From positions 1-19,695 of IMG/VR virus record IMGVR_UViG_2700989272_000006: a stretch of DNA of 19,695 nt. One strand, 5' to 3'. Source of the DNA: a virus. Taxonomy: Duplodnaviria; Heunggongvirae; Uroviricota; Caudoviricetes. The notes under the pieces were generated by a model. It was given only the letters and a program-made list of their open reading frames with translations, had not been told where the DNA came from and did no database searches. The translations under genes and the position numbers were made by a program. This document shows, piece by piece, positions 10,370-18,128 of the stretch. Each line of letters opens with the position of its first letter. The stretch's first letter is position 1.

Positions 10370-10590
10370 GCCGCACCTCCGAGATGCTTCATGTTTTTTC
10401 CGGAGCGAAAGGCTATAAGCGGCATACTGACGCGGTAATTACGGCCCAGCGGTTCACAAATCACCTTCTGACATTCACGGTCAACCAGGCTAACACGTAG
10501 AACATGCCCTGCAGGCGTGGTGTACCACTGACCGGGGCGAGGACAACGGAAAGTCTGATTGGTAAATCGTTTGAAAATATTCCGGATCAT
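10366..10590 (-). CDS. Hypothetical protein (74 aa), translationally coupled within the replication operon
   Basis: ATG at 10590 overlaps the Rha-gene TGA stop (ATGA), and its own stop overlaps the O-like ATG (ATGA); no recognisable domain. Confidence 0.5.
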   Translation of the reverse strand: MIRNIFKRFTNQTFRCPRPGQWYTTPAGHVLRVSLVDRECQKVICEPLGRNYRVSMPLIAFRSGKNMKHLGGAA

Positions 10591-11735
10591 TTGCGCCCCC
10601 TTACCTCTGAAGAGTTCAGCGACGAATGAATAAGACGGGCAAGAAATGCCGCATCGTTAATTCGGTCATACAGACTTACAGCCAGAGGTGATTCAGCTTT
10701 TTCCAGCATGGGATAAAGCTGCTGCAACCAGACCTGATGAATTGATGAAATGTAGGAATAGAGAACGCTGGCGTTATGTGCAACGTCGCTCGGTACAGCG
10801 GGCTTTGAAAGCTGTTTCTCCATCTGGTTAAAGGCATTGATGTATGCCTCTTTGAACTGGGCAGCACGTTTACCCGTGAAACCCATAGCAAGAAACGCAA
10901 AGCCGTCGCGGGTTATTTGATAGCAAGGTAGTTTGCGGCCTGTGCAATCGGTGTAATCACTCACCGAAAAATTGCGGGCAGTGAATGATGCGGAACATTC
11001 AAGCGTGCGGATCTTTTTCAGTACATCGTCATGACGTTTGGAGAAGAAGTTGGCAACAGCCAGGGATGAAGTAACAGCCTGACCATCAACGATGGCAATT
11101 TCAGGTTGAGTGAGGGTTGGGATCGTAGCCATGATGGCAGTCTCCGATAACAGTGAATTACCTTCACCACCGGAAACGCCAATTTCGCTGGTGGTGAACT
11201 GAACGGGGTTGGCGTAACCGGCGTTATCGGAAACCGGCGCACCTTTCGGTGCCCCCGTCCAGCCCACCATAATTTGGGTGTGCACAGACGCAGACGATAA
11301 AAAAGACGCTGGCGCGTCATATATCGCCGATAACATTTCCAGGACGCCAATCCCGACACCCGCTTTATAAGGTGCCTGAACAGTGTAACGTCCCGGAATG
11401 GCAGAATCAATGTGCTGGTGGTCCTTCACACTCAACAAAATCACGCCTGAATTTCCACAAAGGACTAAAGCACTCATGCGGGTAGTCTTTGCGAAGATAG
11501 ATAACGCGCTGTGTTTCTGGCTCCCAACGAATAACATGGACATAAAGCCCTCTTCCGTCACGAAACCAGCGGTTAAGTTCCTGCACAACTCGCCCCCCAC
11601 AGTCAGGTAAAGTTCTCTGTGGTTACTTACAGCCAGGTGATTTGGTAATCTGCATTCATGCCGTAACAACAGGTGTTCAGCGACGCTGACCACCAGCTGT
11701 TGCGACAAACGGTTATTTGCCGTTAAACTGTTCAT
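10587..11735 (-). CDS. Rha-domain phage regulatory protein with about 200-aa N-terminal extension of unknown function
   Basis: Residues about 205-300 (VTSSLAVANFFSKRHDDVLKKIRTLECS...YQITRDGFAFLAMGFTGKRAAQFKEAYINAF) match the Rha/ORF6-type pattern; ATG at 11735 with GGAGAAA SD and ATGA overlap with the upstream stop support the long form. The N-terminal half has atypical composition. Confidence 0.6.
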   Translation of the reverse strand: MNSLTANNRLSQQLVVSVAEHLLLRHECRLPNHLAVSNHRELYLTVGGELCRNLTAGFVTEEGFMSMLFVGSQKHSALSIFAKTTRMSALVLCGNSGVILLSVKDHQHIDSAIPGRYTVQAPYKAGVGIGVLEMLSAIYDAPASFLSSASVHTQIMVGWTGAPKGAPVSDNAGYANPVQFTTSEIGVSGGEGNSLLSETAIMATIPTLTQPEIAIVDGQAVTSSLAVANFFSKRHDDVLKKIRTLECSASFTARNFSVSDYTDCTGRKLPCYQITRDGFAFLAMGFTGKRAAQFKEAYINAFNQMEKQLSKPAVPSDVAHNASVLYSYISSIHQVWLQQLYPMLEKAESPLAVSLYDRINDAAFLARLIHSSLNSSEVRGRK

Positions 11736-12295
11736 GCGTTAGTTTCTCCACAGACACAAAACGCCACGACGCCCGGAGCTGCACACTCGCGGGCGTCACT
11801 CTTTTCTGGAGCGCAAAAGATTTTGTAGACCAGTGCTGCATGCTCCTGGAGCTTCGAAATTGACAGATACAACTCATCATTAATTGCTGTCTGCTCGTGT
11901 GGCTCCACTACCCCATCTTCGATTGCCGAACGAATCTGCTTTGAGTAACTCCCGATCTGTTCGATGACTTCCAGCAGGCGCTGGTTTATATCGGCGTTCT
12001 CTACTTCCTCAAGTTCAGGAAGCGATACAAACACCCCACCAGCAGACTGTGCGACAGCATCCGCAATGTAGTGAGTGCCAGCCGCGCGCTGTAAAATCAT
12101 TGCCCATCCCAGCGGGAAAATCTGATCGCCATCTGCACGAAGGCGGTTGAATAAAGCGTTCTCTGTTACATCCAGCCACTCAGCAGCTTCAGCGTAACCT
12201 CCCGGCAACGCCGCGATAGTTTTTCTGACAGCTTTCACGTACCACTCAGGCTGTTTTTCTACTTTCCAGTGATGCTTACCCACGGTTAGCCTCAT
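11732..12295 (-). CDS. Early regulatory protein in cII position (cII/YdaT-like), function unverified
   Basis: 187-aa ORF directly downstream of cro-like gene; HTH-like segment (GYAEAAEWLDVTENALFNRLR); assignment is positional. Confidence 0.45.
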   Translation of the reverse strand: MRLTVGKHHWKVEKQPEWYVKAVRKTIAALPGGYAEAAEWLDVTENALFNRLRADGDQIFPLGWAMILQRAAGTHYIADAVAQSAGGVFVSLPELEEVENADINQRLLEVIEQIGSYSKQIRSAIEDGVVEPHEQTAINDELYLSISKLQEHAALVYKIFCAPEKSDARECAAPGVVAFCVCGETNA

Positions 12296-12326: not shown

Positions 12327-12527
12327 TTAATCTTTCGGATAGATATCCGGTCTTAAGTCAGATTTCGTAATTGCACCTGACGTGCATTGCTCAAGTTTTT
12401 TAGCCAGCACAAAACTGGCTTTTTTATAACCATTGAAAACCAGCCGTAAGTAGCCTGGTGTTGAGCCAACTTTTCCGGCCAACTCGCCCTGCTGTTCTTT
12501 GGTTAAAGAGTCCCAATACGCTTTCAT
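12327..12527 (-). CDS. cro: Cro-like repressor (66 aa)
   Basis: C-terminal part of ORF 12327..12830 (MKAYWDSLTKEQQGELAGKVGSTPGYLRLVFNGYKKASFVLAKKLEQCTSGAITKSDLRPDIYPKD) resembles Cro/YdaS-type HTH; internal ATG at 12527 has a GGAGG SD and lies just downstream of the PR-like promoter. The upstream part of the ORF overlaps cI antisense and is considered non-coding. Confidence 0.65.
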   Translation of the reverse strand: MKAYWDSLTKEQQGELAGKVGSTPGYLRLVFNGYKKASFVLAKKLEQCTSGAITKSDLRPDIYPKD

Positions 12528-12617: not shown

Positions 12618-13292
12618 ATGAAAACAGTCCATGACATCCGGCGGTCTAACGCCAGAAAACTGAGAGATGGTGTTGGCGGGAATTCTTCCTTTGCCACCAT
12701 GATTGATCGCGAGCCAACCCAGACCAGCAGGTTTATGGGAGATGGTGCTACTAAAAATATCGGTGACAGCATGGCACGGCACATCGAAAAATGTTTCGAC
12801 CTGCCTGTCGGATGGCTTGATCAAGAACACCAGACAACAAACATCACAAAAAAACCTGATGTTTCAATTACTAACAAACAAATAACGTTAGTCCCTGTCA
12901 TATCATGGGTACAGGCCGGAGCATGGAAAGAAGTTGGCTATTCTGAGGTTGATTTGAGCACAGCAGAAACTTATCCCTGCCCTGTACCCTGTGGCGAAAT
13001 GACTTATATCTTGCGGGTGATTGGTGATTCAATGATTGATGAGTACCGCCCGGGAGACATGATTTTTGTTGATCCTGAAGTCCCTGCCTGCCACGGTGAC
13101 GACGTTATTGCATTGATGCACGATACAGGCGAAACCACCTTCAAGCGGTTGATAGAAGATGGAACACAGCGTTACCTCAAAGCATTAAACCCAAACTGGC
13201 CTGAACCTTACATTAAGATCAACGGTAATTGCTCTATAATTGGTACAGTGATTTTCTCAGGAAAACCAAGAAGATACAAAATAAAGGCCTAA
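12618..13292 (+). CDS. cI: CI-like prophage repressor with C-terminal S24 (LexA-like) autopeptidase domain
   Basis: C-terminal domain with Ser/Lys dyad context (VIGDSM ... TFKRL) and Ala-Gly cleavage-site-like motif (VISWVQAGAW); N-terminal 70 aa HTH-like; divergent from cro with operators between. An in-frame TGA at 12567-12569 rules out an upstream extension. Confidence 0.85.
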   Translation: MKTVHDIRRSNARKLRDGVGGNSSFATMIDREPTQTSRFMGDGATKNIGDSMARHIEKCFDLPVGWLDQEHQTTNITKKPDVSITNKQITLVPVISWVQAGAWKEVGYSEVDLSTAETYPCPVPCGEMTYILRVIGDSMIDEYRPGDMIFVDPEVPACHGDDVIALMHDTGETTFKRLIEDGTQRYLKALNPNWPEPYIKINGNCSIIGTVIFSGKPRRYKIKA

Positions 13293-13304
13293 TCAATATT
13301 TATA

Positions 13305-13328
13305 ACCTGCTTCGGCAGGTTTTTTTAT
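13305..13328 (+). terminator. Intrinsic terminator after cI (acctgc-ttcg-gcaggt + TTTTTTAT)
   Basis: 6-bp GC-rich stem, GNRA-like tetraloop, 6-T run immediately downstream of cI stop (13290-13292). Confidence 0.7.
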
Positions 13329-13330
13329 AC

Positions 13331-13375
13331 TTGACAATGTACCCTTGAGATACATAATGTATCTAAAAGAAACAT
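13331..13375 (+). promoter_or_regulatory. pL-like promoter (-35 TTGACA 13331-13336, 16-bp spacer, -10 CATAAT 13353-13358) overlapped by two operator palindromes (13337-13355 ATGTACCcttgaGATACAT; 13357-13375 ATGTATCtaaaaGAAACAT)
   Basis: Consensus -35 and near-consensus -10 with proper spacing; operators share the half-site found in OR and sit in the spacer and over the -10, as expected for repressor control of an early-left promoter. Confidence 0.7.
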
Positions 13376-13978
13376 AACACAGGCAAGATTAAACTAAATT
13401 TGGTTGTAACACGGCGTATGGCACATGCGTCGTTAGCGGTCTGGGGACGTTAAAGGGGACAATCCACTCCTTGCTCGAGCAAACAAACCAGGTAGCCGGA
13501 ATGTGCAAGTCAATGATGATGCTGATAAGACGCCTAACCAGCGTGGCGATTCGGTTTGACGCCTGGGAAGAGACCAGGGTGCAACGATGAGGGCATTTAT
13601 GGAACCGCGACAAAGTGTGGTGCCGTAACTGGCTAAGTGCTCTCAGCGTTGTGGTGAATGCGCAGGCTGATGCGCGAAAGACATTGCAGCTATTGCGGAA
13701 AAGAGCTGTTCGGCGGGGCAATTAAACGCCCGTGAGAGTCTGAAATAACCGCAAGCCGGAGATCAGCACCGGTCACCACAACAGCCACTGCTTTGGCGGT
13801 ACCAGTTTGTACACTTGCTTCCGGCTGGTACCGCTCTTTTTACAAAACAGAGAAGAGCATCACCGGACGACGGGCTCATAACCCAATCCATCCGGGCGGC
13901 TGCCACCGCAGGTGTTCTTCTCTGTTTTGTGGAGAAACTAACCGACCTTGCAGGGTCGATATGATGAGGAGCAGCAAA

Positions 13979-14341
13979 ATGGCTAGCGAACGCAGTACTG
14001 ATGTGCAGGCATTTATCGGGGAGCTGGACGGCGGCGTATTTGAAACCAAAATCGGCGCAGTTCTCAGTGAAGTCGCTTCCGGTGTGATGAACACGAAAAC
14101 CAAAGGTAAGGTCTCGCTCAACCTGGAAATCGAACCATTTGATGAGAACCGTGTGAAAATCAAACACAAACTCTCATATGTTCGCCCGACTAACCGCGGG
14201 AAAATTTCCGAAGAAGACACCACCGAAACACCGATGTATGTCAATCGCGGTGGTCGCCTGACTATTCTGCAGGAAGACCAGGGACAATTACTGACTCTTG
14301 CCGGTGAACCTGACGGAAAACTACGCGCAGCAGGTCATTAA
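13979..14341 (+). CDS. Hypothetical early-left protein (120 aa; YfdP-like by size and position, unverified)
   Basis: ATG at 13979 with GAGGAG SD 7 nt upstream; the longer ORF-track form (from 13793) lacks an SD and is probably leader. Confidence 0.55.
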   Translation: MASERSTDVQAFIGELDGGVFETKIGAVLSEVASGVMNTKTKGKVSLNLEIEPFDENRVKIKHKLSYVRPTNRGKISEEDTTETPMYVNRGGRLTILQEDQGQLLTLAGEPDGKLRAAGH

Positions 14342-16668: not shown

Positions 16669-17556
16669 ATGAATACTCTTACCAAAGAATGGTTACAGAA
16701 CACGATTACCGGAATTGAGTCGATAATAGACGATAAATCGTTTGTATGTAGTGAAATAGCATTCGAAATAGGTGTGGTTAACAACATACTTACCGCATTT
16801 AAAATTGCACTGGCATCGCTGGAAGCAGATCCAGTTGCTTATATTTTCAAACATCCGGCCGGGAAATTATTCTGGGCTTTAACTGATGAAAGCAATAAAG
16901 AGCAAGCTGACGTTATTCCTGTTTATGCTGCCGCGCCTGCGTCGGTTGTGCCGGATAATGCATCAGAGCCTCTTGCTTATGCTTACAAAGAGCTTACGCC
17001 TGAGATTATGCGCAACCATTTAGCTGTATTCGAGCGATATGGAATAGCCCCAAACGATAGCTCTACCACAATTCAGGCACTGCGAATCGCGCTGGATGGC
17101 ATAGAGCGGAGCGGCGCCATGCTTCATGGTGCCGAACCTGTAAGCCAAACTTACAAGTTGCCTCCCCTGTCATCCAACGAAGTAAACGACGCGGCATGGA
17201 AATTACGCAACATGCTTACTGAACACGGTCCTCTTAATGGGCGTCAGTTCAACAATCTGAAAGGTTGCTTCTATGAGGCATTAAAGGTCGCAATGCGCAA
17301 CTATCCGGTAACTCCGGATAGTTGGATAAGCTGTAGTGATCGAATGCCAGAAATGGGAGAGCGACAATGCTATGCGTTAGCGGCTGACTTTAAAAACAAC
17401 TACCCGCCACACATCCCCAACACTCAGGTCGGCGTATATGGCGACTGGTTTAATGATGGCGATCCCACTTGGGTTGACGGTGATGGCGAAGACCTGTATC
17501 TCAAAGAGGTAACCCACTGGATTCCGCTACCAGAACCGCCGCAGGAGGTGAAGTGA
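16669..17556 (+). CDS. Hypothetical protein with DUF551-like C-terminus
   Basis: C-terminal ...EVTHWIPLPEPP motif typical of DUF551 phage proteins (from memory); 295 aa; the stop overlaps the next gene start. Confidence 0.6.
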   Translation: MNTLTKEWLQNTITGIESIIDDKSFVCSEIAFEIGVVNNILTAFKIALASLEADPVAYIFKHPAGKLFWALTDESNKEQADVIPVYAAAPASVVPDNASEPLAYAYKELTPEIMRNHLAVFERYGIAPNDSSTTIQALRIALDGIERSGAMLHGAEPVSQTYKLPPLSSNEVNDAAWKLRNMLTEHGPLNGRQFNNLKGCFYEALKVAMRNYPVTPDSWISCSDRMPEMGERQCYALAADFKNNYPPHIPNTQVGVYGDWFNDGDPTWVDGDGEDLYLKEVTHWIPLPEPPQEVK

Positions 17557-18128
17557 TGAACAACTTAATGATCGACCTTGAGACGATGGGGAAAAATAAG
17601 GATGCACCGATCGTTTCCATTGGCGCGGTGTTCTTCACTCCAGAAACCGGAGACATCGGACAAGAATTCTATACGGTTGTTAGCCTGGAAAGTGCTATGG
17701 GGCAAGGAGCTACACCTGACGGCGATACCATCCTGTGGTGGTTGAAACAAAGCCCTGAAGCACGAGCTGCAATCTGTATTGATGATACTTTGTCGATCAG
17801 CGATGCTCTCTCAGAACTAAATCATTTCATTAACCGGCACGCAGACAATACGAAATATTTAAAAGTCTGGGGTAACGGAGCCACCTTCGACAACGTAATT
17901 TTACGTGGAGCTTATGAGCGAGCAGGACAAATCTGTCCGTGGGCATACTGGAATGACCACGATGTACGCACGATCGTTACGCTTGGGCGTTCCATCGGAT
18001 TCGACCCCAAAATGGACATGCCTTTCGATGGCGAACGGCACAACGCCATGGCTGATGCCCGTCATCAGGCAAAATATGTTTCCGCTATCTGGCAGAAATT
18101 AATTCCTGCCACCAGCACAGAATTATGA
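17556..18128 (+). CDS. DEDDh-type 3'-5' exonuclease (DnaQ/RNase T-like fold)
   Basis: Exo motif I (IDLETMG), motif II-like (WGNGATFD), motif III (HNAMADARH); ATG at 17556 with GGAGGTG SD 5 nt upstream (the GTG at 17553 is the alternative start). Confidence 0.8.
   Translation: MNNLMIDLETMGKNKDAPIVSIGAVFFTPETGDIGQEFYTVVSLESAMGQGATPDGDTILWWLKQSPEARAAICIDDTLSISDALSELNHFINRHADNTKYLKVWGNGATFDNVILRGAYERAGQICPWAYWNDHDVRTIVTLGRSIGFDPKMDMPFDGERHNAMADARHQAKYVSAIWQKLIPATSTEL

Follow-up and report, generated by a model that had tools for sequence, protein, structure and literature searches.

Conserved plus-strand RNA structures in the pL leader of a lambdoid Escherichia coli prophage and their possible role as a small RNA gene

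The 19,695-nucleotide stretch considered in the present work, IMG/VR virus record IMGVR_UViG_2700989272_000006 (hereafter, the window), is a lambdoid Escherichia coli prophage, and the region under study is the leader lying between its pL-like promoter and yfdP, the first gene of the early-left operon. This leader harbors at least five independently conserved and covarying structures of the plus-strand RNA, i.e., a pseudoknotted RNA (E1), a hairpin with a variable insert (S), a tRNA-shaped domain (E2), an intrinsic terminator, and a long hairpin (Table 1). It is a mosaic of portable plus-strand RNA cassettes, which are also found in unrelated phages beside tRNA genes or in their place. Furthermore, it combines the geometry and the slot of a tRNA, a layout like that of the STnc100 small RNAs (sRNAs), identities with the seeds of host sRNAs, and a terminator. 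Taken together, these features lead us to favor, with moderate confidence, the idea that the leader is a pL-driven sRNA gene of the STnc100 type with a RybB-like seed, the terminator of which would also attenuate entry into the early-left operon. The initial annotation of this DNA had named a structured RNA as one of the possible contents of the leader, and conserved RNA structure is indeed present; it overlooked the portable cassettes and the fact that the 3' half is built like an sRNA gene whose seed resembles that of RybB.

RNA structures conserved in an untranslated leader

The gap between the cI-like gene and the ATG of yfdP spans 686 bp (13293-13978) and contains no credible open reading frame (ORF). 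The longest plus-strand ORF has 29 codons if it begins with ATG and 49 with any start, the means of shuffled sequences being 48 and 61, respectively; in the ORF inventory of 13293-13978, no Shine-Dalgarno (SD) sequence precedes any plus-strand ORF. In a 99.3%-identical E. coli prophage, the RefSeq annotation made with the Prokaryotic Genome Annotation Pipeline (PGAP) calls yfdP and leaves the gap empty. On the minus strand, an ORF of 110 codons with a TTG start (13721-13389) spans modules that are exchanged between sister phages. These data agree with the initial description of about 600 bp without a usable plus-strand ORF; the leader is also GC-rich, as had been stated, with 52.7% GC versus 48.3% in the window and 45-46% in the flanking genes. 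Its folding z-score is -3.7, and the first (about) 45 nt of the transcript are unstructured. Among 5426 complete E. coli genomes, 798 contain the region over at least 80% of its length, and 3024 contain parts of it.

The alignment of 17 diverse copies of E1 supports four helices and one pseudoknot, with 99% of the cells paired; in nine pairs (45 cells), both partners have changed. The covariation amounts to 0.26, compared to 0.11 in shuffled alignments (0 out of 500 reaching the observed value) and to about 0.05 when the partners are slid. The pseudoknot covaries as well (CACC/GGUG versus AACC/GGUU), and a candidate second pseudoknot, GCACAU/AUGUGC (13421-13426 with 13501-13506), is invariant in the alignment. 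Since G.U exceeds A.C (58 versus 2), E1 should function as plus-strand RNA. Its 24-nt core, AACCAGGUAGCCGGAAUGUGCAAG, is found exactly in more than 119 viral contigs, and a same-strand E1 lies upstream of E2 in 27 of the 192 assessable E2 loci, in Enterobacterales only. No Rfam family matches E1.

The stem of the S hairpin (folding z-score -3.3) shows many fully compensated variants across loci, such as CGGGAAGAACACTGG/CCAGTGTTCTTCCCG and CTGTAACGACGCTTC/GGAGCGTCGTTACAG. The insert ranges from 25 to 300 nt and in some phages holds a canonical T-arm abutting the 3' strand of S. In phiV10-like phages, the same stem and a UU linker are followed by a real tRNA-Arg in the place where the window has E2, so that S ends 2 nt ahead of the tRNA. 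The commonest 3' strand of S, AGUGCUCUUUCCG (13638-13645 in the window), includes UGCUCUUU, the core of the rrn boxA; a boxA role was considered and rejected for this string, which is base-paired and replaced in many copies and probably coincidental. The boxA-like strings of the leader are UGCUCU, in the (base-paired) 3' strand of S, and CGCUCUUUUUACAA, at the tail of the terminator, which is not kept in the homologues; no boxB was recognised in the leader.

E2 shares with tRNA the geometry of a 7-bp acceptor-stem, a 4-bp D-stem and a 5-bp T-stem, with P3 directly abutting P1. Unlike in tRNA, the contact between the D- and T-loops is a Watson-Crick kissing helix, and the anticodon arm is missing, its place being taken by a hypervariable insert of 13-200 nt; one of these inserts contains, as judged by eye, a T-arm-like sequence suggesting an embedded tRNA. 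In the alignment of E2 from 68 genomes, 105 cells are changed on both sides versus 33.7 in shuffled alignments (0 out of 500 as high). The outer pairs of P1 account for 18-27 double changes each in the 68 genomic copies, and a second alignment concurs; P3 also covaries, while P2 and the loop-loop helix GCUGA/UCAGC allow wobble changes only. The ratio of G.U to A.C is 26 versus 7; the changes in both E1 and E2 are wobble-asymmetric and, therefore, it is the plus-strand RNA that is functional. Thus, the structure and covariance analysis that the initial annotation had proposed as a check revealed covariation beyond that of the shuffled alignments in both elements, with no match in Rfam: E1 and this subtype of E2 are absent from Rfam 15.

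As for other identities of E2, ARAGORN found no tRNA or transfer-messenger RNA (tmRNA) in the window, and the Rfam tRNA model did not match the leader at E<=10. The 3' strand of P1 is followed by ACAG in the window copy, which lacks CCA; CCA or NCCA is found there in 42 of 177 family copies. A DNA-level element (a miniature inverted-repeat transposable element or a recombination site) was also rejected, as the terminal inverted repeats are the P1 stem and the wobble asymmetry favors RNA. Strings resembling a hammerhead ribozyme (CUGAUG) and the signal recognition particle RNA (CCAGGU...GGAA) were spotted by eye and discarded, as no model supports them, and a tmRNA called by ARAGORN in phage swi2 and a weak Rfam permuted-tmRNA match in phage Magnus were judged to be artefacts of tRNA-like pieces. 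The insert has no antisense complementarity of at least 12 nt elsewhere in the window.

The spread of E2 was assessed by exact-pattern scans of viral contigs and of species-representative genomes, which retrieved it from more than 119 of the former and 104 of the latter. Its core of about 50 nt hardly varies between phages and prophages from the Gamma-, Beta- and Alphaproteobacteria; the hosts include Enterobacterales and the gammaproteobacterial genera Pseudomonas, Marinobacterium and Salinicola, the Betaproteobacteria Massilia, Pandoraea, Janthinobacterium, Acidovorax, Comamonas, Achromobacter and Thauera, and the Alphaproteobacteria Pelagibacterium and Martelella. Exact cores were also found in metagenome-assembled genomes labelled Coriobacteriia, Geobacteraceae, Phycisphaerales and Acidobacteriota (L246, L253, L261, and L274), which could reflect either a real spread or mis-binned phage contigs. 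With the E2 covariance model, the window copy scores 91.8 bits, and no second copy exists within the 19.7 kb. In 61 of 228 unique E2 loci, an S24 cI-like repressor is located about 1.3 kb upstream on the same strand, that is, E2 occupies the position of a pL leader; a late-leader position is seen in at least 24 of the 228, with lysozyme, holin or spanin genes downstream, 10 loci having a Q antiterminator gene just upstream. Many loci lie within same-strand tRNA arrays, some of them 3-31 nt from a tRNA. A hairpin followed by a U run occurs within 120 nt after E2 in 68 of 184 loci (37%), compared to 38 of 552 random control windows (7%).

BLAST searches against phage genomes split the leader into blocks of differing distribution. 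Since phages of different immunity, e.g., mEp460, have the leader in common only from about 13392 on, it goes with yfdP and not with the repressor. The phiV10/epsilon15-like podophages are about 82% identical to the window at 13411-13654, and their E1 and S adjoin tRNA-Arg(UCU). Phage P1 is about 78% identical to 13398-13575, the match beginning 1 nt past the CCA of trnI, ahead of ban, and a piece of about 40 nt around 13636-13676 is matched at about 92% in Ackermannviridae and in T1-like, Edwardsiella, Cronobacter and Erwinia phages. Ayreon, cdtI and Stx2c phages have the same leader as the window save for 13651-13776, where they carry an unrelated cassette of about 110 nt that retains the ends GUGGU...CCACCAC; SfV has a third cassette in the E2 slot. 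In Lys8385Vzw, E2, followed by linker and terminator, begins about 10 nt after the inferred start of pL, with no E1, and one operon of phage swi2 consists of a promoter, S, E2, tRNA-Met and a terminator.

Phage P1 harbors all three element types, none of which is annotated (L005, positions 306-411, 567-694 and 1500-1700). Opposite the annotated plp/upl ORFs, and overlapping them, there is an E2 copy; the interval between upl and tciA contains an element resembling STnc100 (E2b), and that between trnI and ban contains E1.

The initial annotation had also listed terminators among the possible contents of the leader, and an intrinsic terminator does stand between pL and the first gene (Table 1). 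In the yfdP phages of Salmonella, Klebsiella and E. coli, its stem sequences differ, the hairpin and the U tract being kept. The apical 27 nt of the long hairpin, GACGGGCUCAUWACCCAAUCCAYCCGG, are nearly invariant, and its stem shows compensatory changes, read by eye, in the Salmonella, Klebsiella and Eeyore homologues. The small hairpin covaries among these phages, although its fold alone is not significant (z-score -0.7). DicF is a prophage sRNA cut from an immunity-region operon; the 5' half of the terminator, UUUGGCGGUACCAGUUUGUAC (13792-13812; 1489-1543 in SfV, L227), resembles the centre of DicF, UUUGGCGGUAUCAGUUUUAC, and the Rfam DicF model scores only 15.7 bits in SfV.

A RybB-like linker and the relation to STnc100

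The single-stranded linker that separates E2 from the terminator coincides with the 5' end of RybB, its 11 nt being identical to the first 11 of the host sRNA; in both RNAs, the seed is then followed by a terminator hairpin. Unlike in RybB, there is no similarity past the seed and no match to the Rfam RybB model, and the promoter is a phage sigma-70 pL with an operator instead of a sigma-E promoter. The 11-mer occurs 75 times in the DNA examined (1.9 expected), and 74 of the 75 occurrences are in the linker slot, which it holds whichever cassette precedes. According to the predicted duplexes, the linker contains a RybB-type 5' seed, GCCACUGCUUUUCUUU, which could base-pair with the mRNAs of omp genes: it would form the same 8-bp duplexes as RybB with ompC (-50 to -41) and ompA (+24 to +33), with energies of -17.2 and -17.9 kcal/mol, respectively, versus -17.4 and -17.5 kcal/mol for RybB.

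In sister leaders of the SfV and Eeyore types, which have the same terminator, the linker slot harbors UGCUGUGUGUAGUC, the conserved seed region of RprA (29 occurrences versus 0.03 expected). The positions concerned are 1484-1500 in SfV (L227) and 1108-1206 in Eeyore (L232); Eeyore matches the whole 3' half of RprA, with 41 bits for the Rfam RprA model, which is below the gathering score of 70. On the sequence evidence, this suggests that the SfV and Eeyore leaders carry phage mimics of RprA. The presence of two host-sRNA seeds in one slot directly 5' of a terminator is as expected for the seed module of an Hfq-type sRNA. In the predicted full-length fold, the linker (AGCCACUGCU, 13783-13792) pairs with the start of yfdP (AGCAG-CAAAA-UGGCU, 13970-13984), which could be a cis contact, a self-target, or a folding artefact.

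The comparison of the Rfam consensus with the window structure revealed that E2, linker and terminator are laid out like STnc100 (RF02076): the inner part of P1 (UGGUG/CACCA), AAU, P2, a variable middle, a 5-bp P3 abutting P1, a linker, and a terminator are common to both. STnc100 and PasD are described as prophage-encoded base-pairing sRNAs, PasD lying near Q and holin/lysozyme genes (preprint 10.64898/2026.05.13.724894). Like them, E2 is found in prophages, next to tRNA genes, and in the interval from Q to the lysis genes. The E2 model gives 31 bits for the cassette of SfV, 33.7 for the leader of a Salmonella phage, and 34.1 for the upl-tciA element of phage P1; the STnc100 model scores the same elements below its threshold, with 39.5 bits for SfV over the full model (cassette, linker and terminator), 35.1 for the Salmonella leader, and 33.4 for phage P1. 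A single bona fide STnc100 was matched by the E2 model (23 bits, E 4e-4), other STnc100 being missed. Unlike in STnc100, the P2 and P3 loop sequences of E2 form a 5-6-bp kissing helix and differ from those of the former, the core reaches Beta- and Alphaproteobacteria, and the window copy is located in a pL leader behind E1 and S, with a RybB-type seed. These likenesses suggest that STnc100 and PasD carry a tRNA-like 5' domain. Bona fide STnc100 copies (63-165 bits) stand in tandem directly after tRNA triplets; in the viral contigs L353, L370, L404, L407 and L412, tandem pairs of 136-165 bits follow same-strand three-tRNA arrays, and in L407 an AgvB gene abuts an STnc100 copy on the opposite strand.

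Other phage RNAs resemble the leader in part. The C4 antisense RNA and the M3 RNA of phi80 are RNase P substrates (PMC11143913); like them (C4 being that of P1/P7), E2 is embedded in a leader and has a closing stem around two hairpins, and it might similarly be released by RNase P. Unlike C4, E2 has a different sequence, the C4 model does not match the leader, and while C4 acts on targets of its own operon through two loops, the two conserved loops of E2 complement each other; moreover, the pL-N region of phi80 has no similarity to the leader. GOLLD and ROOL are ornate phage and prophage RNAs found near tRNA genes and sometimes enclosing one (PMC12286853). They share with the leader elements the pseudoknots or kissing loops and the adjacency to tRNAs, differing in that their models have no matches here, the modules here are smaller, and their hosts belong to the Proteobacteria, not to Firmicutes or rumen organisms. 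Full-text literature searches retrieved neither the E1 or E2 core sequences nor a phage RybB-like sRNA; prophage sRNAs of the STnc100/PasD type beside tRNA genes or in phage leaders are already known.

Proposed mechanism and competing explanations

We propose that, upon induction or infection, RNA polymerase would start near 13365 and make an RNA comprising E1, S, E2 and the linker, and that most transcripts would go no further than the terminator (13842); the primary RNA would thus measure about 480 nt. Processing of the tRNA type could then release a stable sRNA of about 60-195 nt, the candidate cuts being RNase P cleavage at the S/E2 junction and RNase E cleavage or 3' trimming past E2. The exposed linker, together with the terminator hairpin and U tail (a possible Hfq-type 3' module), would pair with mRNAs targeted by RybB, e.g., those of ompC and ompA; as a result, less would be made of the outer-membrane proteins, which in many cases serve phages as receptors. 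The terminator would also limit transcription into yfdP-yfdQ-yfdR...xis, and the read-through transcripts would carry, ahead of the yfdP SD, the hairpin with the 25-bp stem, likely an RNase III or translation-control (regulatory) site.

Under this proposal, the first product of pL in N-less phages of the yfdP type would be an RNA and not a protein, and a terminator would gate the operon. About 15% of complete E. coli genomes, Stx2c phages included, would then carry a candidate RybB mimic made by the phage, and it could reprogramme the synthesis of outer-membrane proteins and phage receptors on induction or infection. A wider hypothesis, which we put forward tentatively and regard as doubtful, is that E2 and STnc100 represent a universal tRNA-shaped chassis, common to phages throughout the Proteobacteria and processed by tRNA enzymes, that delivers swappable host-sRNA seeds (RybB; RprA in the SfV type) and hijacks sRNA regulons from the first transcript on, with E1 as an undescribed class of RNA working with tRNA-like genes. 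If this were true, the regulons taken over would be those of outer-membrane protein/receptor synthesis or of RpoS control.

Several points weigh against the interpretation of the leader as an STnc100-type sRNA gene with a RybB-like seed. Covariation shows the structures; the expression of the leader RNA, its processing, its binding to Hfq and its targets are inferred. The Rfam STnc100 model has no match in 13200-14100 even at E<=10 (threshold 47 bits), and because of this the window copy is a distant variant of STnc100 and not a member of the family; the link to STnc100 is architectural, together with transitive model matches below threshold. Moreover, the seed of RybB acts from the 5' end of that RNA and is internal here unless the transcript is processed, and the U tail, having five U only, is short for a strong Hfq binder. 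The identity over 11 nt could be due to convergence or chance: a leader of 620 nt should share about one 11-mer with one or other of the known sRNAs, so that the argument from the seed depends on precisely where it lies and on the parallel with RprA, and all 74 slot copies belong to one closely related leader lineage. Furthermore, pL should be repressed in the lysogen, and therefore the sRNA would be made only after induction or infection. Lastly, the role of a scaffold does not explain the near-invariance of the E2 core across Proteobacteria, which none of the explanations discussed below accounts for either.

Among these, a cis-acting antiterminator resembling put or EAR, in which nascent E2, with or without E1, would bind RNA polymerase, read through the terminator at 13842 and replace N, appears unlikely to us. 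The position right after pL and ahead of a terminator fits it (in Lys8385Vzw, E2 comes about 10 nt past the start), as do the enrichment of terminators downstream of E2 and a near-invariant core of about 50 nt, such as would be expected for binding a universal machine like RNA polymerase. Furthermore, no N-like protein was found: among 20 ORFs searched against Pfam (the ten largest of the early-left operon and immunity region and ten on the minus strand, on the pR side), none belongs to an N-type family, in keeping with the absence of an N-like gene reported initially. Casjens et al. suggest, as a speculation, put-like control for N-less lambdoid phages of the yfdP type (PMC12315714). The put RNAs of HK022 are likewise untranslated RNAs between pL and terminators in an N-less lambdoid phage, and the initial annotation had proposed an element of this kind; the comparison does not bear it out. 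The put RNA is a two-stem-loop structure of about 70 nt at the 5' end of the transcript, whereas here E1, of about 170 nt and pseudoknotted, comes first; the leader is much larger and modular, and its modules also occur outside antitermination contexts. A blastn search (word size 7) against HK022 24-33 kb for similarity to putL and putR gave only an 18-nt chance match (E 0.19), and no leader module was detected a second time in the 19.7-kb window, be it on the pR side (like putR) or elsewhere, either by BLAST or by the E2 model. The same modules, E2 among them, also turn up in P1, within tRNA operons that virulent phages carry, and past Q genes, where a put function would be redundant. In addition, unrelated cassettes replace E2 in otherwise identical leaders, its helix geometry and position are those of a tRNA, and the conserved yfdP-proximal hairpin comes after the terminator, not before it.

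The tRNA likeness itself might be the function, with E2, once excised by tRNA-processing enzymes, acting in trans as a sponge or decoy that captures either a defence nuclease or a host factor binding tRNA, and with the linker and terminator merely ending the unit. We judge this explanation improbable to a similar degree, although the 7/4/5-bp helices with P3 abutting P1, the location in a tRNA slot and in same-strand tRNA arrays, the CCA or NCCA after P1 in part of the copies, the extreme conservation of the core across Proteobacteria, and the RNase P precedent of the C4 and phi80 M3 RNAs (PMC11143913) all speak for it. Against it, E2 is recognised neither by ARAGORN nor by the Rfam tRNA model, it has an insert of 13-200 nt in lieu of the anticodon arm and, in the window copy, no CCA, and the fixed RybB- and RprA-like linkers would go unexplained. 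A passive leader seems less probable still. In this case, the folds would shield the RNA from Rho and RNases and tune the translation of yfdP, and the cassettes would be mosaic DNA, either selfish or neutral, that is traded across short conserved borders; an untranslated RNA of 600 nt does need protection from Rho, the ends of the swapped segments coincide with GUGGU...CCAC, and both the long and the small hairpin are kept with yfdP in Salmonella and Klebsiella phages. Nevertheless, the loops and junctions of E1 and E2 are invariant far past what stability needs, the changes are wobble-tolerant and strand-specific, and in unrelated genomic settings these elements come with promoters and terminators of their own. 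A hidden protein-coding gene, either a small N-like ORF on the plus strand or the 110-codon ORF on the minus strand, is hardly credible: hypothetical ORFs are annotated in this region of some phages (mEp460_036/037; Ayreon 0036/0037), but the ORF lengths in the leader are those of shuffled sequences, ATG ORFs do not exceed 29 codons and lack an SD, cassette swaps break the frames, PGAP calls nothing, and the substitutions are compensations of RNA pairs.

Promoter, neighbouring genes and further observations

The pL-like promoter matches the consensus at 11 of 12 positions (TTGACA-16-CATAAT), and transcription would start near 13365. The initial annotation had assigned two operators to it; one clear operator-like 17-mer, TGTACC-N7-RTACA, lies within the spacer (13338-13354), the second operator at pL being weaker. 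The stretch separating cI from cro has two more copies of the 17-mer (12534 and 12584), which makes it plausible that the repressor controls the promoter. As no promoter-like site was found between 13400 and 13979, yfdP must be reached by read-through from pL.

Table 1. Features of the leader and of its surroundings in the window.
Feature	Position	Strand	Details
E1, pseudoknotted structured RNA	13412-13578	+	conservation reaches 5' to about 13397
E1 helix H1	13412-13432
E1 helix H2	13436-13443/13489-13496
E1 helix H4	13530-13533/13541-13544
E1 helix H5	13562-13566/13574-13578
E1 invariant core	13486-13509
E1 pseudoknot	13536-13539/13553-13556
S hairpin	13585-13648	+	15-bp stem 13585-13599/13634-13648 around a variable insert; ends 1-2 nt before E2
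E2, tRNA-shaped domain	13650-13780	+	P1 7 bp, P2 4 bp, P3 5 bp, kissing loops, hypervariable insert
E2 stem P1	13650-13656/13774-13780		UGUGGUG/CACCACA
E2 junction J			AAU
E2 stem P2	13660-13663/13672-13675		GCGC-AGGCUGAU-GCGC
E2 loop-loop kissing	13666-13671/13762-13767
E2 variable insert	13676-13754
E2 stem P3	13755-13759/13769-13773		GCCGG-AGAUCAGCA-CCGGY, 0 nt from the 3' strand of P1
Single-stranded linker	13784-13794	+	GCCACUGCUUU, identical to RybB nt 1-11 (K-12 annotation)
Intrinsic terminator	13795-13842	+	13-bp stem 13795-13807/13823-13835, then CUUUUUA; -21.2 kcal/mol, z-score -4.5
Long hairpin	13839-13933	+	95 nt, 23-25-bp lower stem; -49.1 kcal/mol, z-score -7.5
Small hairpin	13943-13958	+	just 5' of the yfdP ribosome-binding site; GACC...GGUC versus GGCGG...CCGCC in homologues
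yfdP SD and start	13966-13981	+	GAGGAG 13966-13971, ATG 13979; PGAP call in near-identical prophage; identical in K-12 CPS-53
yfdP	13979-14341	+	first gene of the early-left operon
Early-left operon, gene order			yfdP, DUF2303/yfdQ, HD-domain yfdR, unknown gene, DUF551 protein, Rv2179c-like 3'-5' exoribonuclease, PrtN/Xis-like protein
pL-like sigma-70 promoter	13331-13358	+	-35 13331-13336, -10 13353-13358
Intrinsic terminator of the cI-like (ymfK) gene	13304-13321	+	7-bp GC-rich stem, then T run; annotated terminator in phage Ayreon
LexA/S24-type cI-like repressor (ymfK type)	12618-13292	+	faces the Cro-like and CII-like genes
Cro-like gene	12327-12527	-
CII-like gene	11732-12295	-

In K-12, the CPS-53 prophage (L338, 5248-5604) keeps yfdP-yfdT, and unrelated sequence replaces everything upstream of the yfdP SD. 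The leader being deleted there, K-12 transcriptomics is of no help; it is probably because K-12 lacks the whole leader that the latter has gone unstudied so far.

The Rfam search over the whole window, both at gathering thresholds and at E<=10, matched only two RNAs, both outside the leader: a C4 antisense RNA (11187-11274, minus strand, 82.8 bits) and an isrK-like RNA (11299-11375, minus strand, 61.5 bits). Both lie inside an ORF (10587-11735) carrying Ash and Rha domains, and this region, on the pR side, looks like the immI-type antirepressor control module of phage P1. Finally, one product of the early-left operon (17553-18128, plus strand) is a 3'-5' exoribonuclease of the Rv2179c-like (RNase T-like) kind (E 1e-74), for which a role in the 3' trimming of the leader RNAs is conceivable.

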